DNA from: Strigamia acuminata
Taxonomy: Eukaryota
Length of the DNA stretch: 64,000 nt
Direction of reading: 5' to 3'
Assembly (NCBI GenBank): GCA_949358305.1
Contig: OX442314.1
Location: 27,032,001 to 27,096,000 of the forward strand
A program made the translations under genes and the position numbers. Below the pieces are notes generated by a model. The model was given only the letters and a program-made list of their open reading frames with translations. It was not told the DNA's origin and did not search any database. The first letter of the stretch is position 1. Every line of letters begins with the position of its first letter. Positions 11,317 through 64,000 of this stretch are shown piece after piece.

Positions 11317-11332
11317 GTATTCAGTGATTTGA
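9836..11332 (+). CDS. hAT transposase with BED zinc finger, C-terminally truncated
   Basis: BED finger CAIC...LKRHITTKH; TADIWTS, ITDNASN, RCSAH and TRWNS motifs. Similarity stops at ~11283; no catalytic-Glu/dimerisation region. Confidence 0.85.
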   Translation: MEAEAQKLIEARNKPVYDGKFFQCISFNGKNFSAKCAICGLSISVAAGSTANLKRHITTKHGTLLAEFIEHTKSATPARKRKAVEIDPESHGSQRTLNFPISDRISSSQKNCEEAVIRFIIMRWQPLRLVEDDEFRRLLKTFNPTYKPMNRVTLVKRISEKYDQIFDQLKINLEAQDYVCTTADIWTSHRKSFLGMTVHWLNENLERKSAAIAVQRFTGSHNYLEIARKLVSIHNKYGLDPSKVTKTITDNASNFVKAFRLFEHTESDAEAEEIEDEDEPIILQSVGDILTGPESITEVDSEFDFDLELPSHLRCSAHSINLIATADAATALKTNVYKRRYSSAMSKFQSICNKMNRSAQVAEKLHEVCHRFIPTPGITRWNSYFDSISVLISLESKLPNICQITSVDVFTNPELDFLKSWLRVMRPVATALDLMQGENAYLGMLLPTLKGIQVNLSNLQNSLHSNDVILHLVAAVSKGLTKRIFIILSMMNIRYSVI

Positions 11333-14388: not shown

Positions 14389-16044
14389 TTAGTCCAACTC
14401 TTCATCCTCAATGAATCCTTCCATGGACGTAACAACTTCCGAGGTGGCTGCGGGTGGAGAGTTAAGTTGAATAGTTACCAATTCCGGTACTTCGTCCGGT
14501 TCAACGTCATGGTTCAGTGGATCCAGGAGCATTCTGTGTTGCTCCTCGGTGAATACTTCCAGGGGATCAGGCCCTCCTAACGGAATGGTGTTAGCGCTGG
14601 TTGGCTCGGAAAAAACCAAGTGATGGTCGGGTAAGCCAGAGTGCCATCCCTCACGAATCAACGGGTGAGCTGCTGCTGAGACCTGCTGCAAAATCTTACA
14701 CCAAATAAAAGAGCGAGTTTGAAAAGATTCCGGCCGAGATGGATGAAAAATCCATTGGATCACGGCCAGCGGCACGCTTAAATCTGGAATTCGGTCATTC
14801 GAAATAGACACACTAATACGCTTAGCTGCTTCCAATAAAATTGGGAAATAATGTTCCACTTCCGCCTTAGTTTGTTCTGTGAGTGACATGCTTGGTCTCG
14901 GCATATATGGATGAACCAGTAAAATGACCGGTTCAGCAGCGTCGCTTACTTCTGGGAGCGGAATAGTCGCTACAATCATGTTGTTAGCCGATGTTCCCTC
15001 TGGAAAAGCGGCGGTTTGCAGACCAGAATCGGATGCCACCGGCGGAGAATCAGACGCAGTAACTGACGTTGGAAGGTTTTCCGCCGAGACAACTGGAATT
15101 CCATCAATCGCAGGGGTGGGAGTTTCCGGCTCGCGTTGTGGCTCCGTAAATCCTCCTCGTGGAGTCGAGGTGCTGGACATTTGCGCCGGGTCTACATAAA
15201 TAGCCTGCTCCGGGCCCTGATGGATGAGGCCACATTCGCGGCACATCGCCCAATTGCGTGCTGTTGGCGTACTTAGCCCTTTGACGATGAAAGGAAGAAT
15301 TTCCTCGTTCCACATGCTCGATATGGCAACGCGCTTACCACCGTGACAGTTCACGCAGACTACGGCGTGAATGCCGGACAGAAGGGAGGATAACCACCCG
15401 CATCCTGCGCATAAAGGGCAGAACATGAGCTTCGACTTCGGCATGATGTTGGTTCCCAAGGCGGCAGCTTCCATATCGCGAAATACATGTTCTCGCCGTT
15501 GCTTCCGATAACTCGGTAAGTTGAGCTCCGATAATGAGCGAGCTTGCGATGTTGGGCGGGTCAACGCTTCGGATGAAGATGCCAACGTGGACTTGGTGGG
15601 TCCCTTGGTTTTGCCTGTCTTGCCTCGACTAGCGGTATCGCGAGGATTTCGTGGTCGGGCAAACTGTCTGCTGGTAGTCTGAGGTGGGGCTTCTTCATAA
15701 GATTCTTCTTCTTGTGAGAAGTCGTCTTGGCGCCGTCTCCTTGAAGCAGAACGGGAGTATTGTGACGAGTCGTCAGAAAAATCCCAATTCGGAGTCTCGT
15801 GGGGCGCATCATAGGTTACGACACGCTGACTAGCTTGACGGCCTCTGGAAGGACGCGAGTCGGTCGGGCTAACACCCATGGCGGTCCTAATTCGTGGTGG
15901 TACGAGATCCGGATTATCTCGGGCCCAGTTGGCGACGAGCTCGGGGTCAGAGGAGGGATTAACAAAGCGATAATCCGTCTCTTCCGACTTTTCTGGATCC
16001 CAATGCACGTACTGTCGCTTGCTAGCACGACCTCGGCGACTCAT
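14389..16044 (-). CDS. Element A ORF3: 551-aa uncharacterised Cys/His-domain protein in the env position
   Basis: ATG at 16044, 5 nt after candidate acceptor TTTTCTTGAAG; homologous to ORF3 of B and C; no signal peptide or TM seen. Confidence 0.85.
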   Translation of the reverse strand: MSRRGRASKRQYVHWDPEKSEETDYRFVNPSSDPELVANWARDNPDLVPPRIRTAMGVSPTDSRPSRGRQASQRVVTYDAPHETPNWDFSDDSSQYSRSASRRRRQDDFSQEEESYEEAPPQTTSRQFARPRNPRDTASRGKTGKTKGPTKSTLASSSEALTRPTSQARSLSELNLPSYRKQRREHVFRDMEAAALGTNIMPKSKLMFCPLCAGCGWLSSLLSGIHAVVCVNCHGGKRVAISSMWNEEILPFIVKGLSTPTARNWAMCRECGLIHQGPEQAIYVDPAQMSSTSTPRGGFTEPQREPETPTPAIDGIPVVSAENLPTSVTASDSPPVASDSGLQTAAFPEGTSANNMIVATIPLPEVSDAAEPVILLVHPYMPRPSMSLTEQTKAEVEHYFPILLEAAKRISVSISNDRIPDLSVPLAVIQWIFHPSRPESFQTRSFIWCKILQQVSAAAHPLIREGWHSGLPDHHLVFSEPTSANTIPLGGPDPLEVFTEEQHRMLLDPLNHDVEPDEVPELVTIQLNSPPAATSEVVTSMEGFIEDEELD

Positions 16045-17155
16045 TGCATCTTCAAGAAAAATATAAATTTTATTTGAGAACATGAATCAAACCGTCGGTA
16101 ATTAATTTAATTTCAAATTAAATTAATTGTCGACCAACAACTGGATTAATTTCACAATTAATTCTTAAGTTCCTTTTGTTAGCGGGTTTCCTTCATTTGT
16201 TGAATAATTATTAAAATTAATAATTATTCTTGACTCGGTAGATAATTTCATCTTATCTTTTAAAACAATATCGTTGACAAAATATTCAAATTAGTGTTTA
16301 TTAAATAAAATAAACCTAATTTTTGCATCTAAACGACATAATAACTAAAAAACCTGTCAAAATATTGAAAAATATTTTTGCAATATTTTTAGTATCTGAC
16401 AATATACATGATTTTTAACTGTACGAATAACTCTATAATTTGTCCGAGTAAAAATCTATCACCGACATCTGGTGGCGTTTGTTATTATCATACACGTGAC
16501 TTGTTAACACCAATTTCAAAGGAATTTTAAGAGACATTTTATGTTCATAAAATAAACACTTACTAACTAGGTGGAGTCCTAGAAGGGTATATTTGGCTAG
16601 TTTAACGTCTAGCTTCACGTATTTGCGAGGGCTGCCCGATTCCGGCGACGTTGGCCGATAAAAACGTTGTGCGGCGCGTGCGAATTCTAAGTCTGCCGTA
16701 ATGAACGCTTAACCAAAATAAATGTTGTCAATTAATGTCAAAATATTATAAATTTTGACAAAATATTGCTTAAATATTTACCGGGAATTCACTTAGTGAG
16801 TTCGTGAAAGGCTTACTCGCGATTTGTCCACGAGATGGTTTCGATAATCAACGTCGTGTCGATAATTTCTGAATTTGAACTGATATTCGTCAAATGAAAA
16901 AATCAGTAAAATAAACGATAAGTGTTCAAAATCATCTAGATTTTAACTCACTAAATTTCAGCGAAAATCCGTTAAAGCGTCGAAGAGTTGAGAATAATCC
17001 TTGGTTTCAGTCCAGTGTAAAACTTGGTGAACAAGTGAGTGATAATCTCAGACCAGGGGTTAAGGGGAGTTTCGAGGAGTAATTTGATTGGTTTGTAATT
17101 ACTCATCTCGAAGTTTCTATTAACCCAAAGGGGGAAACATAGTTTCAAGTAAATG

Positions 17156-18745
17156 TGTGACGATTACCTTCTGGAGATAGCAATTGCTAAACTAAAGTGT
17201 GAACTATCTGTGTGAAAATGTAAAATATGCAAACCTGATGTTTTCTCAAAGCATATAACATTTATTCCGGTTTGAACCTTATATAAATACTATGCCTACA
17301 AGTGGCTAAAATGACGATAAGTTAAACTATACAGTTATTTGGCAAAAGCCCTGAAATAATATCATTTGAAGGCTTCAGTCATGCAATAAGAATTTGTAAC
17401 GGTCTTATTGCTGTGACGTAAAAGATGTCATCTATGAATGGCTTTGGCTTCTAAATGGTCCGGGGTTTGGTTCTAAAAGGCGTGTAAATGGTTAGGCTGG
17501 GTGGGTTATATCCGAGAGGTGCGGTTGACTTTTCTGTATCGTCACACACATCGCATCGCAGATAATTATTGTAATCAATAATTATTGCGAGATGTAACAA
17601 TGTGAGAATAAATATTCATATTAATTCTATGGAAGTAATCATGATATTTTAGAGTCACAAACTTAACTAAAACTATGAAAATAAGTAAAATATATTAAAA
17701 TAGCGCCGAGCTATTTTTTGCCCCGAGTGCAATCAACATCTAAGTTAGACTTAAATGTTCCGTCAAACCAATAACGAATTGAATCGAAATATCTCGCAGG
17801 AAAGGTTATCCATCGCCGGGAAATTACTCCACTCGGTCCTGGCTGGCGGGAGAGTAACCGGGAAATTACTCCGCGTCGATCACTCTGATAATGCGTCTGT
17901 GAAATATAAATACTCCACTCTAGATTCTACATTACCAATGCGTCTGTGAATTTTACTCCACTCTAGATTCTGCACTCTACAACGGAATGTTGGCATGAAG
18001 CTGGAGGGAGTGTGTCTGTGGGTTGTACCCCACTCTAGATACTACACTTAAATGTGTCTGTGAATTACTCACTCTAGTTACTACATTTCTACAACGGAAT
18101 GTTGGCATGAAGAGGCGGGCAGTGTGTCTGTGAGTCTTCTACCCACTCTAGATACTTACACTAAATACAAAGTATTTCTACAACGGATTGTCGGAACGCA
18201 GAGAAGTATAATATGTGCTCAAGTAATATCAGTATCAAACAAAAACAGAACAAGAGCGAGCTATATCCGTTTTACAGGGGGATATATACTCGGTGAGGAG
18301 AATAGCTGTTCAGTGATCCAATGGGATCACTGGGCAGTCAAATCCATCCAATCCCAGATCACAGGAAGTGGATACTCAGGACATAGTCTTCTACTAGGTC
18401 CACTACAGGAACTGGATACACAGGACACACTTTGGATTAAGTCCTTTTGACTATAATCCAAAAGGAGTCCAACTCACAGTGGGTGATGGGGGGTGACTTC
18501 ACCAGGTGTAGAGTTTGCACATAATTCAATAGAATTATGTGACAAATAAATCAACTAGTATTTAAACATCCAAAAGTATTTAAAAGTGTCTAAAGTTGCA
18601 GTGGAATAAAATATAAATAGTAATTTATATTTTATTCACTCAAAAATTGTCGAAATTTGAAATTACCGCTAAAACGTATCAGCGCCATCTATTGGTGAAG
18701 TAATCGTCCTATACTAACAAAGTGTATGACAGTGTAACCGTCACA
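17156..18745 (-). repeat. 3' LTR of element B
   Basis: Matches 29536-31125 with no difference noticed. Confidence 0.95.
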
Positions 18746-19402: not shown

Positions 19403-21058
19403 CTAGTCCAACTCTTCATCCTCAATAAATCCTTCCATGGATGTGACAACTTCCGAGACGGCTGCGGGTGGAGAATTAAGTTGAATAGCTACCAATTCCG
19501 GTACTACATCGGGCTCAACGTCATGGGCCAGGGGATTCAGGAGCATTCTGTGTTGTTCCTCGGTGAATACTTCCAGGGGATCAGGCCCTCCTAACGGAAT
19601 GGTGTTAGCGCTGGTTGGCTCGGAGAAAACCAAGTGATGGTCGGGTAAGCCAGAGTGCCATCCCTCACGAATCAATGGGTGTGCTGCTGCTGAGACCTGT
19701 TGCAAAATCTTACACCAAATAAAAGAGCGGGTTTGAAAAGATTCCGGCCGGGATGGATGGAAAATCCATTGGATCACGGCCAGTGGCACGCTCAAATCTG
19801 GAATTCGGTCGTTTGAAATCGACACACTAATACGCTTAGCTGCTTCCAATAAAATTGGGAAATAATGTTCCACTTCCGCCTTAGTTTGCTCCGTGAGTGA
19901 CATGTCTGGTCTCGGCATATATGGGTGGACCAGTAAAATAACCGGTTCAGCAGCGTGGCTTACTTCTGGGAGCGGAATAGTCGCTACAATCATGTTGTTA
20001 GTCGATGTTCCCTCTGGAGAAGCGGCGGCTTGTGGACCAGAATCGGATGCAACCGGCGGAGAATCAGACGCAGTAACTGACGTTGGAAGGTTTTCCGCCG
20101 AGACAACTGGAGTTCCATCAATCGCAGGGGTGGGAGTTTCCGGCTCGCGTTGTGGCTCTGTAAATCCTCCTCGTGGAGTCGAGGTGCTGGACATTTGCGC
20201 CGGGTCTACATAAATAGCCTGCTCTGGGCCCTGGTGGATGAGGCCACATTCACGACACATCGCCCAATTGCGTGCTGTCGGCGTACTTAGCCCCTTGACG
20301 ATAAATGGAAGAATTTCTTCATTCCACATGCTGGATATGGCAACGCGCTTACCACCGTGACAGTTCACGCAGACTACGGCGTGAATGCCGGATAACAAGG
20401 ACGACAACCATCCGCATCCTGCGCATAATGGGCAGAACATAAGCTTCGATTTTGGCATGATGTTAGTGCCCAAGGCGGCAGCTTCCATATCTCGAAATAC
20501 ATGTTCTCTTCGCTGCTTACGGTAACTTGGCAAATTTAGCTCTGATATCGAGCGAGCCTGCGAGGTTGGGCGAGTCAACGCTTCGGATGAAGATGTCAGC
20601 GTGGACTTGGTGGGTCCTTTGGGCTTGCTGGTTTTGCCTCGACTAGCGGTATCGCGAGGATTTCGTGGTCGGGCAAACTGCCTGCTGGTGGTCTGAGGTG
20701 GAGCTTCTTCAACCGATTCTTCTTCTTGCGAGAAGTCATCTTGGCGCCGTCTCCGTGAAGCAGAACGGGAGTATTGTGACGAGTCGTCAGAAAAATCCCA
20801 ATTCGGAGTCTCGTGAGGCGCATCATAGGTTACGACGCGCTGACTAGCTTGACGGCCTCTGGAAGGACGCGAGTCGTTCGGACTAACGCCCATGGCGCTC
20901 CTAATTCGTGGCGGTACGAGATCCGGGTTATCACGGGCCCAGTTGGCGACGAGCTCGGGGTCAGAGGAGGGATTAACAAAGCGATAATCCGTCTCTTCCG
21001 ACTCTTCTGGATCCCAATGTACGTATTGTCGCTTGCTAGCACGACCTCGGCGACTCAT
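19403..21058 (-). CDS. Element B ORF3, 551 aa
   Basis: Nearly identical protein to A ORF3 despite many synonymous differences. Confidence 0.85.
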   Translation of the reverse strand: MSRRGRASKRQYVHWDPEESEETDYRFVNPSSDPELVANWARDNPDLVPPRIRSAMGVSPNDSRPSRGRQASQRVVTYDAPHETPNWDFSDDSSQYSRSASRRRRQDDFSQEEESVEEAPPQTTSRQFARPRNPRDTASRGKTSKPKGPTKSTLTSSSEALTRPTSQARSISELNLPSYRKQRREHVFRDMEAAALGTNIMPKSKLMFCPLCAGCGWLSSLLSGIHAVVCVNCHGGKRVAISSMWNEEILPFIVKGLSTPTARNWAMCRECGLIHQGPEQAIYVDPAQMSSTSTPRGGFTEPQREPETPTPAIDGTPVVSAENLPTSVTASDSPPVASDSGPQAAASPEGTSTNNMIVATIPLPEVSHAAEPVILLVHPYMPRPDMSLTEQTKAEVEHYFPILLEAAKRISVSISNDRIPDLSVPLAVIQWIFHPSRPESFQTRSFIWCKILQQVSAAAHPLIREGWHSGLPDHHLVFSEPTSANTIPLGGPDPLEVFTEEQHRMLLNPLAHDVEPDVVPELVAIQLNSPPAAVSEVVTSMEGFIEDEELD

Positions 21059-22361
21059 TGCATCTTCAAGAAAATATAAATTTTATTTGAGAACATGAAT
21101 CGAAACGTCGGCAACTAATTTAATTTAAATTAAACTAATTGTCGACCTAAAATCGGGTTAAATTCCATAATTAATTCTTAAGTTCCCTTTGTTAGCGTGT
21201 TTCCTTCATTTGTCGAATAATTATTAAAATTAATAATTATTCTTGACTTGGTAGATAATTTCATCTTATCCTTTAAAAACAATATTGTTGACAAAATATT
21301 CAATTTAGCGTTTATTAGATGAAATAAACCTAATTTTGGCACCTAAACGACATAATAACTAAAAAACCTGTCAAAATATTAAAAAATATTTTTGCAGGTT
21401 TTTAGTACCTGACAATAGTCACTTTTCATGATTTTAACTGTACGAATAATTCTATAATTCGTCCGAGTAAATAATCCATCACCGACATCTGGTGGCGTTT
21501 GTCACTATCATACACGTGACTTGTTAACACATGTATGCTCACCAATTTCCAAGGAACTTAAGAGATATTTTATCTTTCATAAAATAAACACTTACTAATT
21601 AGGTGCAGTCCTAAAAGGGTATATTTGGCTAGTTTAACGTCTAGCTTCACGTATTTGCGAGGGCTGCTCGGTTCCGGCGACGTTGGCCGATAAAAACGTT
21701 GTGCGGCGCGTGCGAACTCTAAGTCTGCCGTAATGGACGCTTAACCAAAATAAATGTCGTCAATTAATGTCAAAATATTATTAATTTTGACAAAATATTG
21801 CTTAAATATTTACCGGAAAATCACGTAGTGAATTCGCGGGAAGGTTCCTTGCGATTCTGCCACGAAATAGTTTCGATAATCAGCGTTGTGTCGATAATTT
21901 CTGAATTTGAACTGATATTCGTCAAATGAAAAAATCAGTAAAATAAACGATAAGTGTTCAAAATCATCTAGATTTTAACTCACTAAATTTCAGCGAAAAT
22001 CCGTTAAAGCGTCGAAGAGTCGAGAATAATCCTTGATTTCAGTCCAGTACAAAACTTGGCGAACAAGTGAGTGATAATCTCAAACCAGGGGTTAAGGGGA
22101 GTTTCGAGGAGTAATTTGATTGGTTTGTAATTACTCATCTCGAAGTTTCTATTAACCCAAAGGGGGAAACACAGTTTCAAGTAAATGTTTACACGTAGAT
22201 TAATTTAAATACGATCGGCCGTGTAAAAATAACTCAAACATTTGTTAAATTTTATTCACAAAAAAAAAAAAATGTTTTTAATTAATAAAATCTAACAATC
22301 CTTCGTGAATATGATTGGGAATATTTATTTTAAAATAAAATATTTTCAATATATTGTGTCT

Positions 22362-29515: not shown

Positions 29516-29533
29516 ATCTCGGTGGGACCTCCA
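29516..29533 (-). promoter_or_regulatory. Primer binding site of B, tRNA-Gln type
   Basis: TGGAGGTCCCACCGAGAT, 2 nt inside the 5' LTR. Confidence 0.85.
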
Positions 29534-29535
29534 CG

Positions 29536-31125
29536 TGTGACGATTACCTTCTGGAGATAGCAATTGCTAAACTAAAGTGTGAACTATCTGTGTGAAAATG
29601 TAAAATATGCAAACCTGATGTTTTCTCAAAGCATATAACATTTATTCCGGTTTGAACCTTATATAAATACTATGCCTACAAGTGGCTAAAATGACGATAA
29701 GTTAAACTATACAGTTATTTGGCAAAAGCCCTGAAATAATATCATTTGAAGGCTTCAGTCATGCAATAAGAATTTGTAACGGTCTTATTGCTGTGACGTA
29801 AAAGATGTCATCTATGAATGGCTTTGGCTTCTAAATGGTCCGGGGTTTGGTTCTAAAAGGCGTGTAAATGGTTAGGCTGGGTGGGTTATATCCGAGAGGT
29901 GCGGTTGACTTTTCTGTATCGTCACACACATCGCATCGCAGATAATTATTGTAATCAATAATTATTGCGAGATGTAACAATGTGAGAATAAATATTCATA
30001 TTAATTCTATGGAAGTAATCATGATATTTTAGAGTCACAAACTTAACTAAAACTATGAAAATAAGTAAAATATATTAAAATAGCGCCGAGCTATTTTTTG
30101 CCCCGAGTGCAATCAACATCTAAGTTAGACTTAAATGTTCCGTCAAACCAATAACGAATTGAATCGAAATATCTCGCAGGAAAGGTTATCCATCGCCGGG
30201 AAATTACTCCACTCGGTCCTGGCTGGCGGGAGAGTAACCGGGAAATTACTCCGCGTCGATCACTCTGATAATGCGTCTGTGAAATATAAATACTCCACTC
30301 TAGATTCTACATTACCAATGCGTCTGTGAATTTTACTCCACTCTAGATTCTGCACTCTACAACGGAATGTTGGCATGAAGCTGGAGGGAGTGTGTCTGTG
30401 GGTTGTACCCCACTCTAGATACTACACTTAAATGTGTCTGTGAATTACTCACTCTAGTTACTACATTTCTACAACGGAATGTTGGCATGAAGAGGCGGGC
30501 AGTGTGTCTGTGAGTCTTCTACCCACTCTAGATACTTACACTAAATACAAAGTATTTCTACAACGGATTGTCGGAACGCAGAGAAGTATAATATGTGCTC
30601 AAGTAATATCAGTATCAAACAAAAACAGAACAAGAGCGAGCTATATCCGTTTTACAGGGGGATATATACTCGGTGAGGAGAATAGCTGTTCAGTGATCCA
30701 ATGGGATCACTGGGCAGTCAAATCCATCCAATCCCAGATCACAGGAAGTGGATACTCAGGACATAGTCTTCTACTAGGTCCACTACAGGAACTGGATACA
30801 CAGGACACACTTTGGATTAAGTCCTTTTGACTATAATCCAAAAGGAGTCCAACTCACAGTGGGTGATGGGGGGTGACTTCACCAGGTGTAGAGTTTGCAC
30901 ATAATTCAATAGAATTATGTGACAAATAAATCAACTAGTATTTAAACATCCAAAAGTATTTAAAAGTGTCTAAAGTTGCAGTGGAATAAAATATAAATAG
31001 TAATTTATATTTTATTCACTCAAAAATTGTCGAAATTTGAAATTACCGCTAAAACGTATCAGCGCCATCTATTGGTGAAGTAATCGTCCTATACTAACAA
31101 AGTGTATGACAGTGTAACCGTCACA
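29536..31125 (-). repeat. 5' LTR of element B
   Basis: Direct repeat of 17156-18745, adjacent to the PBS. Confidence 0.95.
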
Positions 31126-31303
31126 AATGTTTACACGTAGATTAATTTAAATACAATCGGCCGTGTAAAAATAACTCAAACATTTGTTAGATTTTATTCA
31201 CACCAAAAAAAAATGTTTTTAATTAATAAAATTTAACAATCCTTCGTGAATATGATTGGAAATATTTATTTTAAAATAAAATATTTTCAATATATTGTGT
31301 TTT

Positions 31304-41395: not shown

Positions 41396-43072
41396 TCACT
41401 TGACTTCTTCTTCATCAGACTCCGATCCTTCACTCTCTTTCTTAAGAGTCTCACTGGACTCACCGACTTCGGACTTTTCTAGGGGAAGAAATTCCGCTGG
41501 TCTTCGGTCGATGACGAAATTGGGTTCTTCACCTATATCTTCTGCGGGTGGAGATTTCGGCGCGTACTCCGGAGACCTTGGTTCATATTCTGGAGTTTTC
41601 TCAACTAACTCATAACTTTCTTCAATAGCCTTCTTCGAAGCGTCGTATATCTCCGCAATGCAGGGGAGTCCGTAGAACCATGAAGGGTTTATTAATCCTT
41701 TTCCGTCGGTGTTGACTCTGTCAATTAACAGTGTCCATATGTGCTCCAGCACAGCAAAAGATTCGCCTCGATTGGCGTTAAATATCAATTTCATCACATG
41801 GACAGCATAATTGATATTCGAGGGATCGGTAGAGTCTGAGCGCATTTGTTCCGTGATTTTCTCGGCAATTCTAAAAAGCGTCGGAAAATAGTAGCTCACC
41901 TCGTATTCGAATAGATGCGCTATTTTCGCTCCTGGTGGAGGGAAAAAGGGTTCCACAAGAAGTTCATTTTCGGCTTCTTTTTCGTTCTCCTTGGATACCG
42001 TTTGACATCCTTTATCGATGACTGTCGTACTCTGTGGTTTTCGGGAACTCTCTAGAGCTTCTGGCGGAATTCTCAGATCTTGCATTTCCCTTCCTAGTGG
42101 AGTGGTTATGGCGTTCAAGAACTCCGGGCTGATGTACGGCGATCTTCCGTCACTGGAGAGGACAATTTTACACTCCGGGCAAGTTGCCCACAACCTGGCC
42201 GGGGGAGGGTGAATTCCCATGACCACAAACGGCAGAAAGCTGGGGCGCCAAGGTTGGCCTTTGGGCCGCTTCTTTGTGCCCTCGCAATTGGAACATTGCG
42301 CCAGGTGGCCTCCGGTTCCCGATCCCGAGACCCACCCGACGGCGGAACAAAAAGGACATGGCACTTCGTCCTTCGAGAGTACCATATCATCATGTGGTTT
42401 TCCGTTCTCTTTATCTTGTTTACACTGTTCTCGTCTTTTCTGGATCTGACGAACTTTATTTGCCAACTTTTGGCGATCTGACCATGCGCTGGTATTTGAC
42501 CTATTCCTAGGTTGGTCGGACCTTCGGTAGGAGGAATACGACCTTTTTTCCCGGTCTCGGTCTGGTGAATCGTTAAATCTAACGTATTCTCTTTTTGGAC
42601 GCTCTTGGCCAGTACAAGAGGAAGGTGTAGCGTCTTCCGAATTTCGGCGGCGTTTAGCTTCCATTGGTGGGGATTTCCTTCTTCGTTCGGGCGACTTGAC
42701 TCGGTTGTACACAATTTCCACCTTTCGCGGTTTACTGGTACTTGGCTGGTTTTTTGCAATTGGCGGATTATTTCTGGCGAAATCATCCGCTTTTATCTTT
42801 GGAATAACAAATGGCTTCGCCGTTGATTCTTTTTTGGCCGGTTCCTCCTGTAACGTGGGGGTTCCGGGTGGACCAAGCTCAGCGGGGAGCAATTCGGGAT
42901 GTTGGCGAGCCCAACTCAAAATATCCCAGCCTCTGGCGTTGATAATCACGGGTGTTTTGGGACACCCTTCTACGAATACGGCAGCGGCCGAAGGAGGTGC
43001 CGTTACTTCTTCATCGGAGGAAGAGGATTCGACCAACACGTATTTTCTCTTTTTTTCGATCTTTTTTCCCAT
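41396..43072 (-). CDS. Element C ORF3, 558 aa, divergent homolog of A/B ORF3
   Basis: ATG at 43072, 5 nt after candidate acceptor TTTTCTCTAG; shares WARxxPxLxP, the Cys/His block and the EVxxYFP...GLP block with A/B. Confidence 0.85.
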   Translation of the reverse strand: MGKKIEKKRKYVLVESSSSDEEVTAPPSAAAVFVEGCPKTPVIINARGWDILSWARQHPELLPAELGPPGTPTLQEEPAKKESTAKPFVIPKIKADDFARNNPPIAKNQPSTSKPRKVEIVYNRVKSPERRRKSPPMEAKRRRNSEDATPSSCTGQERPKREYVRFNDSPDRDREKRSYSSYRRSDQPRNRSNTSAWSDRQKLANKVRQIQKRREQCKQDKENGKPHDDMVLSKDEVPCPFCSAVGWVSGSGTGGHLAQCSNCEGTKKRPKGQPWRPSFLPFVVMGIHPPPARLWATCPECKIVLSSDGRSPYISPEFLNAITTPLGREMQDLRIPPEALESSRKPQSTTVIDKGCQTVSKENEKEAENELLVEPFFPPPGAKIAHLFEYEVSYYFPTLFRIAEKITEQMRSDSTDPSNINYAVHVMKLIFNANRGESFAVLEHIWTLLIDRVNTDGKGLINPSWFYGLPCIAEIYDASKKAIEESYELVEKTPEYEPRSPEYAPKSPPAEDIGEEPNFVIDRRPAEFLPLEKSEVGESSETLKKESEGSESDEEEVK

Positions 43073-43883
43073 TTTTTCTAGAGAAAATAATATAGAGAAT
43101 CTTATCAATACGATTTATTTAACAAAATTTATACCGCCATCTATCGTGAAAATTTATCAACTTTATCGATGGTTTCGATATATTTTTATATCGGGATTTT
43201 ACGTGCGGCTTTTTTACTATTCGTAATATTCGATAGAATTATCTTTAGAATACTTACACTAGGAATCTCCGGAATCCACTTAAGTATTCAAAATGATGTG
43301 GTGCCGATTTTCTAATTGACAAAACTCGTTGTTTTTAGCGAAGGTGTTCTCCGCCAACGTAGAAATCCTAATTTTATATATAAAATAGCCGTGAATATCT
43401 CTTGATATATTAAATTTATCATTACTTACACGTAACACTCTAGTAAACGTTGAACTGTCGTGATGATATTTCGAATTTTCTCGAAGGAGAAATTTTCTTC
43501 TTCACGCCGAGGTCACGTGTTCGTCTCTTTCAGACGAAATTAATCACCGAAGTTTTCTCTCGTCCTTTTCTATCATGAAAGGATTATAACATTAAGTCCT
43601 GACACATAATTTCCGAGTTTACTGGTAATACATGAGTCTTACCACGAATCTCGAGGTTTTTCTTGAAAGAAATCGCGACGAACTTTTCTATCGACGCAGG
43701 TGTCAAAGTTGACTCGCACATGTGTGTGAAGCTTGTGAGAGAACAAATCCTCTACTCTCTACCCGGGGTATTTTCACCCTATTCTCCTATAGGTTTATGA
43801 TTTAACCATGACTAATTTGTGGGTCAAAAAGTGACCCGATTTTTTATCTTTTTTAAATTTTTATTTAAAAAAATACGCTATCA

Positions 43884-51321: not shown

Positions 51322-51339
51322 ATCTCGGTGGGACCTCCA
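51322..51339 (-). promoter_or_regulatory. Primer binding site of C, tRNA-Gln type
   Basis: Same 18-mer as in A and B. Confidence 0.85.
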
Positions 51340-51341
51340 CG

Positions 51342-53097
51342 TGTGACGGTGACGACCACAACTCCCATTTAACAATGGTACCGGGAAGAGATCGCAATAA
51401 ATAAACAGTGAATACAATACGAGATAAATACAAGACAGTTTATTGTTGGCAAACAATATGGATGAGCTAAATTATACATAGGACTAATGCCGACATTTGG
51501 CAAGTTAACTGACTATTAAACTATACAAAGCATAGGCCAATTGGTCCTAAAATAATATCATTACGTGTCTGGGATAAGGGAGCGGTTTCCCCATCGCTCG
51601 ACCTGGTTTACAGATGTCATCTAAGTCGGATGGCTGTGTCCTGGAGTCCGATATGGCTTCGCTGGTTTCCTTGGTTCGCTGTGTAAATTATCACACGTCG
51701 ATAAATCGAATGATCTGAGCATTGCGGTTGACTTTGTCTGCACCGCCACAACTTTGGGAGGATATTGGTGTAAGTAAATGTATTCATTTTACTTATCAAT
51801 ATTCCGCTTATGAATTATATTTAATTCATATCGTTGTGAATTCTTATTTAGATATTTTTGTGGATAAGTTGTCATCAACTTATCAGTTACATTTGCGTCT
51901 TTGATGTAATCGTGATCGTAATTAAGTCTTCTGACTTGGTTAATCAACTTGTCGCCAAGTTAATATTTAGCTGTTATAAATAAAATGAAGATTAGGCTTC
52001 CCGTCGCAACACACAATTGCCGTCGAAAGAAAATATACGCCTTGCAATGCAGAACGGTATCAAGCGTCCCCTGCGTCGCGACACGGTCGTTCGTCTGGCG
52101 ATTGACGGTATCACGTACACAGGAGTCGATAGCTCGCGGCTCCGCACAGCAGTATAATCTCTCGCGGTACTAATAATAGACCGACTACTTTGGCATCGAA
52201 TACCATGAGAATCAGCTTGCCAAACACTTGGTGCTACTCGTGGTTACTGTAAAACAGACTGCTTTGGCACCATCCGGTGAAGGAACTAATTCTCAACAGC
52301 AACGATGCTACTTGCGGTAACGGAATACGTTCATACCGAGAAAGACCACATGGTCCTGTCCGGAGGATACTGAATTGCACAACGGCGGGTTCTCCTTCGG
52401 CGTCGCAACCGTAAACTGTAACATTTATGCAACATAATGATCCCAGCACTTCGACTTCAATTGCCGGCGGTGGCATGATTCTGTAGAATCATGCAACGGT
52501 TCTTTGTGAATAAATCAACAAAGAACCAAAAGGTTTTTTTACGTGAACAACGAATCATATTTCTTAAGTAACAATACCAAACAGAAAATAATCAAACAGA
52601 GCTGCCGGATGGCCGGTTGTTTGGGTTTATATAACCTGACTGGATTAGAGATTAATCCAATCAACCAATTGGAACATGGGTTCCACGAATCCCTCCAATC
52701 CCGTATCGCCGGAAGTGGATACGGAGGAGCAATATGCTAATTCACACCACAACCGGAACTGGATACCCAGGACCGGAAATGGATCCACCAATCACATCGA
52801 TCGGTTGATCGATGGATTATCAAATCTCCATTTCTGCTGAACTAGAGATTCCCATCACTTAGTGTGAACAATAATTATTAATATATATTTATATTAATCC
52901 TAATAAAGTGTCGTTTCATACAAATAAATATATTCTTATATTTATTTACCAGTTTTCTTAACTCGCAATTCGAATTTACCGCTGAATTATAATCGCGCCA
53001 TCTAGTGGCGACTCGGAGCATTGACAAATGCGGGTTTCGCAAAAAACACTTAAAATTCGGCCGTGTTATTAATAAATAGCACTTATAAACCGTCATA
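51342..53097 (-). repeat. 5' LTR of element C
   Basis: Direct repeat of 39133-40888. Confidence 0.95.
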
Positions 53098-53101
53098 AAG
53101 G

Positions 53102-54042
53102 TTATCCATCGCCGGGAAATTACTCCACTCGGTTCTGGCTGGCGGGAGAGTAACCGGGAAATTACTCCGCGTCGATTACTCTGATAATGCGTCTGTGAAA
53201 TATAAATACTCCACTCTAGATTCTACATTACCAATGCGTCTGTGAATTTTACTCCACTCTAGATTCTACATTCTACAACGGAATGTTGGCATGAAGCTGG
53301 AGGGAGTGCGTCTGTGGGTTGTACCCCACTCTAGATACTACACTTAAATGTGTCTGTGAATTACTCACTCTAGTTACTACATTTCTACAACGGAATGTTG
53401 GCATGAAGAGGCGGGCAGTGTGTCTGTGAGTCTTCTACCCACTCTAGATACTTACACTAAATACAAAGTATTTCTACAACGGATTGTCGGAACGCAGAGA
53501 AGTATAATATGTGCTCAAGTAATATCAGTATCAAACAAAAACAGAACAAGAGCGAGCTATATCCGTTTTGCAGGGGGATATATACTCGGTGAGGAGAATA
53601 GCTGTTCAGTGATCCAATGGGATCACTGGGCAGTCAAATCCATCCAATCCCAGATCATAGGAAGTGGATACTCAGGACATAGTCTTCTACTAGGTCCACT
53701 ACAGGAACTGGATACGCAGGGCACACTTTGGATTAAGTCCCTTTGACTATAATCCAAAAGGAGTCCAACTCACAGTGGGTGATGAAGGGTGACTTCACCA
53801 GGTGTAAAGTTTGCACATAATTCAATAGAATTATGTGACAAATAAATCAACTAGTATTTAAACATCCAAAAAGTATTCAAAAGTGTCCAAAGTTGCAGTG
53901 GAATAAAATATAAATAGTAATTTATATTTTATTCACTCAAAAATTGTCGAAATTTGAAATTACCGCTAAAACGCATCAGCGCCATCTATTGGTGAAATAA
54001 TCGTCCTATATTATCAAAGTGTATGACAGTGTAACCGTCACA
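53102..54042 (-). repeat. 5' LTR of element A, second part
   Basis: Matches 12785-13725. Confidence 0.95.
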
Positions 54043-55627: not shown

Positions 55628-56705
55628 TGTGTGGTGACCTCAAATATTCCTAGTTGAGTGCGCACCATATTTCCAAATTGTCTTATAAACATATTCAACA
55701 AGCTTATATGTTTTGTTTCAATGTAAATTGAAATAAAACATACATTAATAAAATATAAAACAAGACACAATATTACCCAAATAATATTGTGTTTTGCAGC
55801 AAGTTTTGGCCCAGCAACAGCGTCAACCAATCGCGCTGCAGCGTGCATTGCTTTGATGATGCTGCTAGGCGTGTGCCTGGGCGGAGCATCCCTTCCCCTC
55901 GCGCGTGCCCGGCTCAATTGTTGCACACGACCCAAAGGCGGCCGTGTGTGATCTTTGTGCAACTCGTCATCTGCGCAGCTTTTCTGAGCAGATTTAGAAG
56001 TGAGCCAAACGGTTTTGGCCCACTCTTCCCGCATTCTTGATTCTGCTTCCAAACCATTCACATCTGTGTCAAACTTATGCCAACCATTGCTAAGTGTGAT
56101 CTGTGATATCTGGAAGAGTTGAGATTCATTGCTGGTCTGTACCAACTGTACAGAATAGCGCCCTTCTGTTTGAATTACTACACGTAATTTAAGCCATTTC
56201 TGTGTGTGAATTGACATTGAGCTTGCTCTGTCAATTTGAAGGCTTTGTGTCGAGTTTAACTCCGCAAAGCGAACTGTGTTAAGACGGATTGTTACGTCGA
56301 GCTTGCTCCGTAATAATCAAACCGCTGTGTGCAAGACGTGTTCTCGTGTTGAGCTTGCTCCGCGAGGATTTTGGTATATTTTAGCAACGTATTTTAGCGT
56401 CGAGTTTACTCCGCTAAAATCCCGCGCTCACACGACGCCATCGACGCCATTTTGGAGCCAACGGTCAACTGTGAGTGTCCAAGTACGAAGAGAAACCAGA
56501 TCGACCCAGTCATTACACTTATTATTTCGCATTATATTCGGGTGTATTTAAAACGATTAAAACAATCTAATTTTTCCTTTACTCTGTGTAAAATCATTCC
56601 CCTAGACAACCATTTGGCCACAGAGTAGAAGTCCTGTACGGCATCTCACCGACGATTGCTTATTAAATTTATATAATTTAATAAGTAAAAACCCGGATCG
56701 CCGCA
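55628..56705 (+). repeat. Inferred 5' LTR of element D (~1.08 kb)
   Basis: Bounded by the insertion point and the PBS; the second LTR is outside the window, so boundaries are unverified. Confidence 0.75.
56209..56420 (+). repeat. Array of five bulged stem-loops in the D LTR
   Basis: Units 56209-56236, 56242-56270, 56287-56318, 56341-56368, 56391-56420: variable complementary arms around TY-GAG(CTTG/TTTA/TTTAA)CTC. Confidence 0.85.
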
Positions 56706-56707
56706 CT

Positions 56708-56725
56708 TGGGGGCCCGTCCGGGAT
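56708..56725 (+). promoter_or_regulatory. Primer binding site of D, tRNA-Pro type
   Basis: TGGGGGCCCGTCCGGGAT, one mismatch from the classical tRNA-Pro PBS TGGGGGCTCGTCCGGGAT. Confidence 0.85.
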
Positions 56726-56797: not shown

Positions 56798-59692
56798 ATG
56801 GCGACGCCAATGCAAATTGTAAAACGACAGCGAGGTCGACCAAGCACTCAGAAACGAGCAGCGACGGTTTTGCCGGCTCTCGAGCCTGAAATGCTTGAGG
56901 AGAAAATTATTTCCGAGGAAATAACACCAGTTCCAGATCCGAAACAACTTAAGGATGCTGAAAATGAAGTTGCTAGAGCATTAAGCGCTTCAAGTGCGAG
57001 TTCTAACGACCAAGAACTCCCGCCACTTCCACTGGAGGAAGTGGAAAATACGTTACGTGAAATGGAAAGTGAATCGTCTCACGAATCACCTCCTCGCATG
57101 ACCATGTTGGATGCTTTGAGAAATCAAGCACGCCAGGATGGCGCCCAAATAACGGACGACATGACGGTGGAAGAGATTCATCGCGCCATGATACGACTTC
57201 ACACTGATCGTGCCGTTTCAAATTTACAATTTGAAATGGAACGAAAAGAAGCTGAGCTTCAACAACAAAAAGCGGAGGTTGAGCTCCAACACATGGAACT
57301 CAATCGACAAAATGAGGAATTTCTAGCCCAAAAAGCTAGAGAATACAGATTAAAAGGTGAAGTGGAAGATCTTTCTAAAATGAATACTAGGAATGAACTT
57401 TCAATTCGCTCACACCAAGAGGCGCGAAGACAGCTCGAGCTTACCAAAAGTAAGCTGGAGCAGAAAAATAAAGAACTGATTGATTTGGCAGACCACTACC
57501 AACGCAATCATAATCAACTAGTGAGATATGCTGCTGAATTAGACACACGTGCTAAAACAGAGCGTACTCGCGAAAGCAAAATAGCTAAGCGCGAAGATGA
57601 GATTTTCCACTCGCTGGATCAACCCAGTACGAGCGGACAAGTCAAGTCTAGCGGCCCTGCTAAGCGATTACAACCAGAAGAATCGCAAAATCAAATAAAT
57701 GAGAATGAAATTCTCCGAGCTGATTTGTTGCGCGCTCAAGAAGAGCTTGCAGAAATGAAAGATCGTTTGCAAGCAAGGAATTATACTGACCAATTGGTGC
57801 AACCAGAAATGGCTGCGCCAACTGTCCCTATTTTGACTCCCGAAACAATAACAATTTCCGTTGTTTCAGAGTTAAGTAGCCAATCTGGATTATCGAGTGA
57901 TGACGACCAACGTTCGCGTCGCCGCCATCGCTCAAAAAGAAAACGTCCTTCAGATTCCGAGGAACGGAGAGCTGATCGCAATCCGCTCCCAGGTAATCGA
58001 AATCCTATTTTTCACAACAGTGACCGACTGTTGGGAATGGTAGATGATCGAAATAGGCGGCATGAAACTGGTATTCATGTTACTCGAACGATACCACTGG
58101 CTCAACAGCAAGACTCGTCGAAAAGAAGTCGACGAGACACGAATCCAGCACGCGAACCACCCGACGGACATGAAAGCCCGCCAGGTGGGGGTCAGTATAG
58201 AAGAAATCCACCAGATGGAGGAAATTCAGATGGACATGGAGATGGACCACCTGGAGGTGGACGTCGACCGCCAGACGATGACGGCGACCCACCCGACCCA
58301 CCTGAAACACCACATTTTAACACGCCTTCAAATTCACAATCTGATTCAAGGTCGGATTCTGATGTGAATGCGCAACAAGAACGCGATAATCGACATCGAT
58401 CTCATCGACGTCGACATCGAGGCCATTCTTCTCGGCGTAATACTCATTATTAGACTGCTGAAGAAATTGATCGATTATTAGCTGATCGTCGATCTTCCGA
58501 TCGATCTGACGCTACTGCCGATAATGCTGACATCGCATTACGACAGAAAATTGCCCAATATACTGCAATCAACTGGACACACGATCTAGTTGACGAAAGA
58601 ACTATTAGATGGGATCACATCAAACCCGCTTTATTCGATGGGGAATGGGAAGCTGGATCCACTCTTTTAGATGAAGTTTTACGAATTTCAAGGTTGAATG
58701 GCATTGCATGTCACACTGCTTTGAAAAGAGTAGTACCAAAAGCTCTTATAGACCGAGCTGAGAAATGGTTTTATTCAAAACAATTTCAAAATTGGAATCA
58801 CTTTGTAGAAGAATTCATGACTGAGTATGGAGAGTCAAGTGAAGACTTATTACAAATGTGGGATAATCTTTCTCAAAATAAAGGCGAAAGTCTTCGCTCT
58901 TATTTAAGAAGGACTGAGGATTTATTGGTCACTCTCCCTTATACGACGGGAGATGCAGCCATTGATCGTCAATTCCGACGTGGATTGACAGATTATTCAA
59001 AAAATGTTCTACTTTCAGTACGAGCACCTTATCCGGGTGGTTTCGCTGAATTAGCCAAATTTATGCGAGCCAATCAAATAAGGATTGACGAAAATTATAA
59101 AGCTTATCTACCAGCTGATGAAAAAGTTGCGTACGCTAAGCGACAGCAACGGAGAAAGGAATTAGCTAAAGATACACGTTTTGCTAATACCCCTCTTTTG
59201 CAACCCCCAAAACGAGGAGATTTTTTGGCAGAGACTGCTAAAGAATCAAAAAAGGGATCGGATGGAAAAAATCCTCATCCAACCCCTAAAGCTCACTTAG
59301 CCGAAGTGACAGAAATGGAAACTGCTTCTGAACCAGAGAAATCTGACTCGGAACCAGAAAGTGAAGCTGCAGCTGCTTTATTAGCCCGTAATAACGCAGT
59401 AGCTCGAAAATTTGGACCAAAGATGGCACCTAAAAACGTTACTTTTGGTTCACCAAAGACAGACGCGCTCAGTAGATCGAAGTCGCCGACCCCTAAAAAG
59501 GACGAAGCCAAACGTTCAAGTTCGCCTTCGCCAAAAGTCGCAAAATCGCCTGCTACTGACCCGTGTAATATTTGTAAGAAATTGGGACATTGGGCTAAAG
59601 AATGTCCTGACAGAAAATCGAGCAAAGACAAGATTATAGAAGAGTTCGAGAAATCGATGAAATCAATCGGCGAACTTCTAAAAAACTTGTAA
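56798..59692 (+). CDS. gag: Element D Gag (964 codons) with one in-frame TAG at 58451-58453
   Basis: ORFs 56798-58453 and 58694-59692 share a frame and the gap is open; PALFDG, AEKWF, CCHC knuckle CNICKKLGHWAKEC. Confidence 0.85.
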
Positions 59693-62600
59693 GCGCGCAT
59701 CCAGACGGTCTAGTGGATGCGACGCCTACCGCCTCGGAAAACGAACTAACACCATCTCAAATTTTAGATGAATTTTTAAATAAACAGATTAAATTAGAAT
59801 TAGAAAATAATTTAATATTTCCAAAAATTGATATTTCCAGTTTAAGGCTTGTGCTAAAAAATGAAAACATCACTGAGGAATTTTTTAAAGAAAAAGTTCA
59901 ACAAATAAAAGTTGATTGGGAATCTAAAATAAAAGATGCTGTTACTTTACTAGATGGAAAAGCTAGGCCCACACCTGAAATCACTGAAGGATCAGATAAA
60001 ATTGATTTACCTGGTCTTGATGAATGTATTGAAAAATTACTGGCTACAACATTAGTCACTAATGATTTATTGGACGAATTACCATTGGATCCGCCGATAG
60101 AAATTAAGCCACCGCGACGTTTTAAATGCAAGTACGCGGACATACCAAACAGCAATGATTTGCCGACGATTCGATTGCAGACGGCAAACGGTATGATAAC
60201 AGGGATGTTAGACTCTGGAGCTAATCGAAGCTTCATGGCCTACTCCGTAGTAATTTCACTGAAGATGGAAGACGAAATTCGACCAATTGGACCGGATGTG
60301 AGAGTTACGACTGCTTCAGAAGATGTAGTCCCTGAAGGAACTCTCCTACTTTCTTTTGCGTGGACTCACGGGATGTTAAGTCATCCATTCATAATTTTAA
60401 GAAATAAATATCCTATTGTTTTATTAGGATGTGATTTTATGAATCGACTCAACATACAACCAAATCCTAAGACAATGTCTTGGAATTTTGTCAAGTCTTT
60501 GAAAGAAGATTTACCTTTTGTTCCTCAAGCGATTCTTGATCGTTATCAAGAGTTTCTTGATCCACCCGAAGAAATCATGAAACGCGACTTTATTAAAGCA
60601 AATCACATGAAAGCTGGTTCCGCCACTGCATGTCAAGCTAAAGTTGCCGATGAAGAAAACATAGTACAAAGACTTGTTAGCGACGCTAATTTGTCAATGG
60701 AAAATAGTTTAATGCTTGAAAAAGTATTAAAGAAACATGAAAAGATTTTATCACGCCGACCAGGTAGAACACACCTCGTTAGGCATGAAATTAAACTGGA
60801 CACTAAAGTTCCAATTAGAGTTCCGTTTAAAAGCGTAAATCCACAGAAACGTGAAATTATCCGTCAAATCTGTCAAGATATGTTGGATAATGGGTACGTC
60901 GAACAAGCCACTGGAGACTATGGAATGCGAATAGTTCTAGTGATGCGTCCGGACTGTGATCCGAGACTATGCATTGATTTTAGACCACTCAATGCACATA
61001 CATTATACGATCCTCCTCAAATGCCGAGCATTGAGGAAATCTTGCGAGAACTCGGAAGGTTTGAATGGGTCACAACAATAGATTTGTCAAAAGGCTATTG
61101 GCAAATAGAGGTTCATCCGAACGACCGTGCTAAAACTGCGTTTTGGAGCCCTTTGAGTCGACTACAATTTCGAGTCATGCCCTTTGGTCTCGTAAATGCG
61201 CCGTCAACTTTCCAAAAGTTGATAGAAAAGATTTTGGGGGACGCCTATCGAAAATTCGCATGGGCATATCTCGATGATATAATTATAATATCAAAAAATT
61301 TTGAAGAACACATGATGCATCTGGAAGAAATTCTGAGTAAACTTGAAAATGCAAATCTTCATGTTCATCCAGAAAAATCAAAATTTGGCAGAAAAGAATT
61401 AACTTTTCTTGGTTACAAGTTAAGTGTTCAAGGAGTTAGTGTCGACCCTAAAAAAGTCGCCGCCATTAAAGAAATGCCAGCTCCTTCAAATTTGAAAGAG
61501 TTGCAAAGATTTTTGGGAATGGTGAACTTTTTTCACAGATTACTCAAGAATCTAGCAGTCATGACAGAACCTCTACGTCCTTTACTCAAAAAGGATGTGG
61601 AATTTATTTGGTCAGAAATTCATCAAGAAGCTTTTGATCAAATAAAAGATGCTTTGACGAATGCAGAAACAATGGCCATGCCTGATTTGACAGAACCATT
61701 TATTGTGCATACCGACGCCAGCAGAAAAGGACTTGGCGCCGCGCTTATGCAAATGAGGGAAATCGATGATCAAAATATAGAAGTGCCTTGTGTTTATGCC
61801 AGCAGAAGTTTGCAACCTGCTGAGATAAATTACAGCGCCACAGAATTGGAGTGCCTAGCGGTAATCTGGGCATTACGTAAATTTCGACATTACTTGGAAT
61901 TTACAACATTCATAGTAAGGACTGACCATCAAGCACTAAAATGGTTGATGCAGTTAGACGAACCTGCCGGAAGGTTAGCGCGTTGGCAAATGGAGCTAAT
62001 GCGCTACTCTTTCGAAATACAATATATTAAAGGTCCACTAAATGTTTTAGCGGATGCTTTATCCAGATCACCGATTGATAAACCGGAAAATCCTGAAGAT
62101 GATGGAGATAATGATGAATTATTATCTTACTGTCCATCACCACAACGAAATTGGAAAATGGGAAAATTTCATGAGCTTCCTGTCTCCACGCTGGAGGAAA
62201 AGGAAGATCACGAATTCGTCAACTATTGGACTAAAATTTATGACCCCTCTGAGGAATCAGATGACGTCATAAGAGCGCAAATTTCAAGGAAATTCCAAGT
62301 TCCTTCGTCAAATGTTTTAATAAAAGCATTTGTCGCCAAAATTGTAGAGCGTCTTGATTGTGAACCCCCCACAAGGGAAGACATAATCAAGGCCCAAAAA
62401 GAAGATAAAGTTTGCCAATTGATGCGTAATTTTTTAAATTGTAATCAATTTCCGCCTGACGTCACAACGCGACTCCAGAGGAAACAATATAGAAAACACG
62501 CAACCACCTTCTTAATTGAAGATGACTTATTAATGCAATTTCATCCCACAATGTCTGATGAATTGGGGGAGGATGGGAGAGCACTCAAAGTTTTTGTACC

Positions 62601-64000
62601 TCAGACATTGAAGTATAAAATTATTTGGCTAATGCATGGCCACCCACTTTCTGGCCACCCAGGAATTGCAAGGACTCTTTATCGAGCACGCCGAATTTAT
62701 ACCTGGAAAGGCATGAAATCGGACATTACGAGATTCATTCGACATTGTGAGCGTTGCCAAGCTTGCAAACCTCGAACGAAAGGACAAATTGAAGCAGCGC
62801 AAATGGGTCCTTACAGCCCATTTGACTGCCTAAGTGTTGATTTGACCGGCCCGAAACCTCGGACGCGCAAAAACAACACACATATTTTAGTCATACTTGA
62901 CGTGGCAACTCATTGGCCAGAATTATATCCAATGTGTAACCCCACTGCTGGAAAAGTAGCAAATTGCATTTATCACCTTTCCATGAGCATGGGATTCCCT
63001 CGTAAAATTATTTCTGACAACGGCCCGCAATTTCGTGCCCAAGTCTTTAAAAAATTTTGTGAAAAGTTCAAGATGGTTCCAACACCAACTTCAACGTATC
63101 ACCCACAAGCTAACCCGGTTGAAAGGGTTAACCGTGACATCAAATATTTGGTTGCAATTTATTCATCGGTTCATTCCAAATGGGACGAATATTTGCGTGA
63201 ATTTGCATTTAGTTTGAGAACTACGGTGACGAGAGGAAGAGACTTCTCTCCCGCATTTCTTAACTTTTTTCGCGAACTCAGAGTACCTTGGGATCCAAGA
63301 ATACCTGAAGGAATTTTGGTCGTAGATCCAAAAAACCCACATTTATACGTGCAAAAATTAGAAGCCGTTATCGCCGAAACATATCAGCACATGATGTCAC
63401 ACGTGTTAGATTTGCGTAGACGAGTTAATCTTAAAAAAGAAGGTGAGAAGTTCTCCAATTTTAAATTAAACGATTTAGTTTGGAGAGATTCTCATGTTTT
63501 GTCGAGCGCTGCCCGCGGCATTGCAGCTGGCATCGCTGATAAAAGAACAGGACCATATGTAATAACCAAAGTATTACAGGGAGGATCCGTAGAATTGAGA
63601 AAGCTAGAAAATAACGAAATATTTCCAGCTGTCCATTCGTCTGAATTAACTCCGTATTTCCCGAGTTTCGATCAGGAAGTATGGTTAGAAGGCGAAGAAG
63701 TCGGTCAAAAGACTGAAAATATAATTAATACGTTAGATGACGATGAATTAAAGAAAATACCTGTCGATAATTCATCCAAACCACAAATGGAGTCAGACCT
63801 CGTGAATAACGACGTTGAACTTCGTGACAATTTCAAAAAGCTTGAAATTGCTAAAAAATTAAATAAAAAGGTGTTTTTAGAAAAGAAACAAAAAACATCT
63901 GAAATAAAAGACTCATCTGACTCAGTCTCCGATGACAATGAAGACGGCGATTTAAATACAATAAATCCCTCGCCGACAAAGAGATATAATCTTCGGACTC
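59680..64000 (+). CDS. pol: Element D Pol (PR-RT-RNaseH-IN), open to the window end and absent from the ORF track
   Basis: Frame +1: MLDSGA ~60205, YLDD ~61267, HTDAS ~61708, HGHPLSGH..CERC, SDNGPQF, NPVER, GPY; begins at slippery A-AAA-AAC 59680-59686. Confidence 0.92.

Follow-up and report, generated by a model that had tools for sequence, protein, structure and literature searches.

The 64,000-nt stretch of Strigamia acuminata DNA analysed here (the window) contains, in the 5' LTR of a Ty3/gypsy retrotransposon (element D), five small hairpins that carry the same kind of bulge. This raises the question of whether the hairpins are maintained as RNA structures and, if so, what would bind them. 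We addressed it by folding the array, by comparing its units with each other and with other copies of the family, and by comparing the element with its neighbours and with known RNA elements.

An array of five bulged hairpins in the LTR of element D

A preliminary description, made from the sequence alone, had proposed five tandem hairpins in this LTR, and we find all of them at the places given there, between positions 56209 and 56420 of the forward strand (Table 1). The array lies 580-791 nt into the 1076-bp LTR and consists of five separate units, all in the same orientation and spread over 212 nt. Each unit is built of 8-10 lower pairs (10, 8, 10, 9, and 9 from H1 to H5), a bulge of the form U-Y after a purine, an upper stem GAG/CUC, and a loop of the form Y..R. 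When 56200-56430 (+) is folded, all five appear in the MFE structure and in the centroid structure alike, and the fold reaches -71.3 kcal/mol (z -2.9; 2 of 200 shuffles were equally good); the antisense fold of the same segment has a z of -2.0. When the whole LTR is folded, the pair probabilities are 0.84-1.00 for H1-H3, 0.17-0.49 for H4, and 0.36-0.67 for H5, and the antisense fold is slightly better than the sense fold for H5 and equal to it for H1. The sliding-window z is about -1.7 to -2.9 over H1-H3 and near zero over H4-H5. The folding strength of the array is modest. The best-folding part of the LTR is an AT-rich inverted repeat at 55707-55790 (z -6.4).

Table 1. Features of element D and of the neighbouring family A LTR, with positions in the window
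Feature	Positions	Strand	Description	Evidence
Hairpin H1	56209-56236	+	A before UU bulge, GAG/CUC, CUUG loop	Folding, descriptor scan, covariation, whole-LTR fold
Hairpin H2	56242-56270	+	UC bulge, 5-nt loop UUUAA	Folding, descriptor scan, covariation, whole-LTR fold
Hairpin H3	56287-56318	+	UC bulge, CUUG loop	Folding, descriptor scan, covariation, whole-LTR fold, family variants
Hairpin H4	56340-56369	+	UU bulge, CUUG loop	Folding, descriptor scan, covariation; weaker in whole-LTR fold
Hairpin H5	56391-56420	+	UC bulge, UUUA loop	Folding, descriptor scan, covariation, whole-LTR fold
5' LTR of element D	55630-56705	+	About 1076 bp, TG...CA, imperfect terminal inverted repeat; Ty3/gypsy	
Primer-binding site, tRNA-Pro type	56708-56725	+		8/9 first letters match the Cer1 tRNA-Pro site, as given in the available text of PMC10309623
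ORF1, 551 aa	56798-58453	+	Ends at in-frame TAG; candidate binder	No Pfam family
Capsid and zinc-knuckle part of gag	58454-59692	+	In frame after TAG	Retrotrans_gag E 2.9e-9, zf-CCHC
pol (RT, RNase H, integrase, gypsy order)	59611-64000	+	-1 frame; open at window end	
Family A LTR	29535-31126	-		

We scanned both strands of the window with a descriptor (a stem of at least 8 pairs, a 2-nt bulge, 3-4 pairs, and a loop). Six of the 18 resulting rows correspond to these five units, and the array is the sole cluster in the window. With a covariance model of the five units, which themselves score 38.5-43.2 bits, the next-best place in the window reaches 14.3 bits. The model thus identified neither a further copy nor any such hairpin in the internal region of D, as far as the element lies within the window. 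Packaging signals of retroelements usually sit in the internal region. A motif CUGUG(U/G) is repeated in the spacers ahead of H1, H3, and H4 (at 56200, 56274, and 56325; span 56200-56331, +). Few of the listed variants of the family fall within this motif and many alongside it, and from its sequence it is possibly part of the repeat unit.

The element that carries the array

The edges of the LTR are indicated by the likeness to a P450 paralogue, which stops at 55627, and by the contigs of the family, which begin at 55630-55631, one of them ending at 56705. Element D is inserted in a cytochrome P450 exon and runs past the window end, its 3' LTR lying beyond. A search with the exon gave one uninformative plant match. 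Within the window the element has the Ty3/gypsy layout, with LTR, primer-binding site, gag, and pol in the order RT-RNase H-integrase. The capsid part yielded no relatives in a protein search, and the RT yielded none in viral contigs; among the matches listed, which are cluster representatives, the best identity to the RT is 44%. The phage collection gave no match, and no close relative of element D outside its own organism was found in the collections searched.

The first open reading frame, ORF1, has two Arg-rich patches, aa 372-386 and 534-548, in each of which 7 of the 15 residues are Arg. Such Arg-rich patches also occur in the Gag of the neighbouring family A and are common in Gag proteins. 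The N-terminus carries an RGRP motif, which we take to be AT-hook-like. Searches with ORF1 gave no usable Atlas match, inspection of its sequence revealed no Cys-rich domain, and one simple pattern for an NES found nothing similar in it. The in-frame TAG at 58451-58453, between ORF1 and the capsid part of gag, has a predicted hairpin behind it and may be a programmed readthrough signal or a break specific to this copy. At the overlap of gag and pol, an A_AAA_AAC slippery site (59680-59686) with a GC-rich hairpin behind it (59680-59720) is likely to be a -1 frameshift signal.

Evidence for selection on the RNA structure

The preliminary description stated that the lower stems differ in sequence and yet all pair, and the comparison of the units bears this out. 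Only 1-5 of 8 letters are common to the 5' arms of any two units, and each 5' arm pairs 8/8 solely with its own 3' arm, the match to the arms of other units being 3-7/8. Across the five units, 66 of 70 cells are paired, whereas slid controls are 37-44% paired, and 8 of the 14 pairs have changed on both sides. The covariation score was reached by 0 of 500 shuffles, in a test that has five units and a structure derived from these same sequences. G-U wobbles on one strand are A-C mismatches on the opposite strand, and the five non-Watson-Crick pairs of the array are all G-U on the sense strand, none A-C. The earlier claim of G-U-only mismatches on that strand thus holds for all five wobbles of this copy, with the qualification that two of them (56264 and 56340) are minority states in the family, most copies having A-U there.

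Long lower stems do not simply accompany this core. Scanning public sequences for two core patterns gave 32 loci, of which 9 are viral, 14 come from metagenomes, and 9 are prokaryotic; they served as a negative control only. All 112 cores at these loci have 0-4 lower pairs, versus 8-10 in the array. Long lower stems are absent at all 32, several of which are simple tandem repeats, and the best covariance-model score among the first 23 is 20 bits. Random LTR flanks attain 8 lower pairs with P = 0.0006.

The family can be followed in three public runs (one organism, two studies), from which 385, 160, and 59 contigs were aligned to 237 bases. These represent many diverged copies of the LTR region of D, visible as short contigs only, and we did not take contig depth as copy number. 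The runs richest in such copies may derive from the very sample behind the window. Covariation across genomic copies had been put forward as a check of the hairpins, and the outcome is a depletion of variants in the stems: of the 25 variant places listed, 6 fall in the stems (118 places) and 14 in the spacers (88 places; Fisher p 0.016). Taken alone, this test on listed contig variants is weak. Five of the six stem variants keep the pair by exchanging G-U and Watson-Crick states, and one breaks a terminal pair; that all five transitions are pair-keeping has P = 0.054, since 56% of possible transitions would keep a pair. The remaining listed variants comprise three in loops and two at the second bulge letter (C<->U only), and there are none at the 30 positions of GAG/CUC or at the five bulge U. 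The pyrimidine bulge and the GAG/CUC stem, described beforehand as invariant, are present in 5/5 units, and this C<->U exchange is the one change in them among the listed family variants. In H2 the variants retain pairing, and the loop changes, each listed from one X3 contig, would yield CUUG. Neither H1 nor H5 has a listed variant, and detection may be poor in these two units.

Overall, an RNA structure kept by selection through pairing-preserving changes is well supported. Two other readings were weighed against these data. In the first, the array is a neutral by-product of the tandem duplication of one hairpin, with template switching keeping the arms complementary. The spacers ahead of H3 and H4 do bear traces of duplication, and the number of units is labile, because a variant in the family contigs joins H1 directly to H4, skipping 104 bases. 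However, the stems have diverged to 1-5 of 8 shared letters in their 5' arms and the core has not, and both the strand-asymmetric wobble and the depletion of stem variants argue for selection, which makes a neutral origin highly improbable. In the second, the role is at the level of DNA or of replication: the near-palindromic core would be a transcription-factor site in U3, or the hairpins would aid strand transfer during reverse transcription. As DNA the core is indeed an imperfect palindrome, and palindrome arrays that differ among families are known from the cis-regulatory region of LTRs (available text of PMC4728375). Yet a duplex site needs neither covarying lower stems, nor a one-sided 2-nt bulge, nor G-U without A-C; the single orientation of the five units also speaks against a duplex site. 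We regard a role at this level as very unlikely.

The core and the arginine sandwich motif of TAR and 7SK

In the arginine sandwich, as the available text of PMC6189040 describes it, a bulge pyrimidine forms a cap, a triple is made to the second pair (U23 with A27-U38 in TAR), and a paired base precedes the bulge. The same text reports that G26 and G28 of TAR contact arginines and that the 7SK ASM3 bulge, which is used by HEXIM, has the same secondary structure as the TAR bulge. All five units of the array read purine-U-Y-G-A-G opposite C-U-C-Y, and the secondary-structure rules for the cap, the triple, and the base hold in 5/5. The likeness to the TAR bulge noted in the preliminary description is an exact match by this definition (PMC6189040, available text). 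One unit, H1, has the A-UU-GA arrangement of 7SK ASM3. In its letters, the core obeys the rules of the arginine sandwich motif known from TAR and 7SK. This match fixes just about 9 bits of sequence, and, given many comparable hairpin arrays, the resemblance to TAR may have arisen by chance; TAR-like arginine binders also arise in in-vitro selection.

The loops give a different picture from the one first drawn. A stable CUUG tetraloop had been part of the original argument, and CUUG occurs in just 3/5 loops, the other two being UUUA and UUUAA. We therefore rejected it as the key feature. The first and last loop letters covary across the units as C..G or U..A. This hints at a fourth pair, which TAR also has, and at a loop that is not fixed. 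The HIV cyclin T1 hexaloop is absent from all five units; bovine TAR does without this hexaloop. In HIV, according to the available text of PMC10970485, cyclin T1 binds the apical loop of TAR, TAR occupies +1 to +59, and HIV-2 TAR is a multi-hairpin structure of 123 nt. No Rfam TAR family was matched up to E 10, and the weak Rfam matches that were returned (7 and 3) all lie far below the gathering score. With no HIV loop, no Rfam match, and no Tat-like protein found in the window, we rejected filing the array as a TAR. By analogy, the array would work like the TAR bulge without being a demonstrated TAR.

Hairpin motifs of neighbouring LTR families

Two other LTR families in the window, A and C, allow the position of the array to be compared. 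At 30271-30541 (-), the family A LTR has an array of five hairpins of another type, with two purine-rich bulges and a GUG/CAC upper stem, and copies of this array are also found at 12870-13140, 17891-18161, and 53187-53457. In the family A array 76 of 77 cells are paired, with weak covariation (20 of 500 shuffles reach the score). It starts at LTR position 586, compared with 580 for D, and hence occupies the same LTR zone. A TATA box (LTR position 459) precedes it by about 125 nt, and an AATAAA follows well behind it, about 110 nt short of the LTR end. In D, the TATA box that A and C have at this place is missing; going by the layout of family A, the array of D would span about +90 to +300 and probably belongs to a long R region. 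In the LTR of family C, the loop motif C(CRCRA)G occurs four times at 52133-52316 (-), in some cases folding as a pentaloop hairpin. Different motifs in different families fit recognition by each family's own protein.

Families A and C also have a third ORF of about 565-572 aa (14389-16086 and 41396-43114, -, and also 19403-21082). In family C it sits behind pol, which matches its position in the family A-type LTR units. The third ORFs of A and C are 27% alike over 296 aa, basic, and furnished with Arg-rich patches and CxxC motifs, features that make them candidate accessory RNA-binding proteins. A protein search found no homologue of the family A third ORF, and that of family C had no Atlas match. 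The pol of D is just 34% identical to those of A and C.

Some further features of these elements were recorded. Near the LTR start, all three families have strong AT-rich inverted repeats with AATAAA in or beside them (for A and C, 30975-31020 and 52920-52955, -). The primer sites of A and C (29518-29535 and 51322-51340, -) differ from the tRNA-Pro type of D and are presumably of the tRNA-Gln type. Between 12140 and 54043, gypsy elements that share LTRs stand in tandem or nested in one another, all within a P450 gene cluster. Several of their LTR parts are 100%-identical or chimeric, which points to recent activity and to recombination of the LTRs. At 9779-11332, an ORF that contains a BED zinc finger is probably a DNA transposon remnant.

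Candidate binders of the array

If the array is an RNA element, its binder could be a transactivator, a host protein, or a protein of the element that acts later. In the first case, a protein of the element would bind the bulges on nascent RNA and recruit P-TEFb, making transcription of the family self-feeding, as with Tat and TAR. The exact TAR bulge geometry is in line with this, as is the confinement of the array to the LTR, with no occurrence elsewhere in the part of the element within the window. HIV-2 TAR is likewise multi-hairpin (PMC10970485, available text), and in the third ORFs of the neighbouring families Cys-rich and Arg-rich parts occur together, a combination also seen in Tat. 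On the other hand, the array, placed from family A at about +90 to +300, would lie downstream of the +1 to +59 given for TAR in the available text of PMC10970485, the loop for cyclin T1 is missing and the loop letters vary, and ORF1 has no Cys-rich domain. A switch of this kind is unlikely. Its boldest form would be a Tat/TAR-type circuit that arose independently of lentiviruses, in which the five pockets recruit the element's own basic protein or titrate HEXIM, thereby releasing P-TEFb, and in which each family has its own hairpin code and a matching accessory protein; this we consider doubtful. The preliminary description also took a position upstream of the start site to speak against the array as such, which is too strong. 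An LTR array upstream of the start site is in U3 and hence still in the 3' end of the genomic RNA, so that this position counts against a Tat-like mechanism and not against an RNA element.

In the second case, the array is a landing site for a host factor, either by mimicry of 7SK, with binding of HEXIM freeing P-TEFb, or through another host RNA-binding protein acting in export, localisation, or translation. The 7SK ASM3 bulge used by HEXIM shares the secondary structure of the TAR bulge (PMC6189040, available text), H1 has its A-UU-GA arrangement, and a host protein might recognise the UG-rich motif of the spacers. One host factor would nevertheless poorly explain why different families in the same genome have different motifs in the same zone, and the GAUC/GAUC context, a feature of 7SK, is absent. 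We find this quite unlikely.

We tentatively favour the third case, which we put at somewhat short of an even chance: the array would be a multivalent docking site, specific to the family, for an arginine-rich protein that the element itself encodes, and would thereby mark the RNA for export and assembly. The starting point is the set of stems that pair, differ, and covary around a fixed R-U-Y-GAG/CUC-Y core. From the LTR layout, the array would belong to the transcribed R region and hence lie early on each transcript. Each unit is predicted to form a U.A-U triple with an arginine pocket, like TAR and 7SK. The binder would be the Arg-rich N-terminal part of ORF1/Gag or an accessory ORF behind pol, beyond the window. 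Several bound copies would then single out the RNA of the family for export from the nucleus and assembly into particles, much as with Rex/Rec or the CERV of Cer1, rather than switch on elongation. A precedent is CERV itself, an RNA export factor that a gypsy element encodes (PMC10309623, available text). Of the multimeric protein-binding RNA element first proposed, the selected RNA structure stands and the protein binding remains a prediction.

Comparison with known systems

The array shares with HIV-1 and HIV-2 TAR and with 7SK ASM3 a paired purine, a U-led pyrimidine bulge, the pairs G-C, A-U, and G-C, and a possible fourth Y-R pair. With HIV TAR it further shares the location in the LTR and, as in HIV-2, the presence of more than one hairpin. 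In contrast to TAR, it has five units over 212 nt and loops of 4-5 nt in place of the cyclin T1 hexaloop, and its carrier is not a lentivirus but a gypsy retrotransposon in a genome of invertebrate type. The response elements of Rex, Rec, and Rev and the CERV system of Cer1 are similar in being structured LTR or genomic RNA for which binding by a multimerising element protein is proposed, as predicted here for D. RxRE and RcRE are located in the LTR. The Rex, Rec, and Rev response elements are single large folds, whereas the D array is made of five small, equal hairpins. Cer1 is also a gypsy element with a tRNA-Pro primer site (PMC10309623, available text).

The palindrome arrays in the LTRs of Sireviruses (copia) are also composed of a few hairpin-forming units that vary among families and loci (PMC4728375, available text). 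According to the same text, they lie in the cis-regulatory region and their sequence is not conserved, whereas D has a fixed bulged core and G-U-only wobble, which point to a defined RNA shape. Our literature search, over titles and abstract openings and with most subscription journals outside its coverage, found no paper describing such a hairpin array in a retrotransposon. Multi-copy packaging signals of RNA viruses consist of several small hairpins that present one fixed recognition motif on variable stems. The hairpins of D differ from these in that they are confined to a cluster in the LTR, with none in the coding region, and in having a bulge pocket as the fixed part instead of the loop.

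The RNA-level self-recognition and nuclear exit of animal LTR retrotransposons are poorly defined, and the array offers a small, synthesizable candidate that is replicated five-fold; natural variation already points to its critical nucleotides. Should the arginine pocket prove real, nature would have converged on the TAR/7SK motif in a setting other than retroviruses and 7SK. If the array also acts on elongation, RNA-targeted transactivation would not be confined to lentiviruses.
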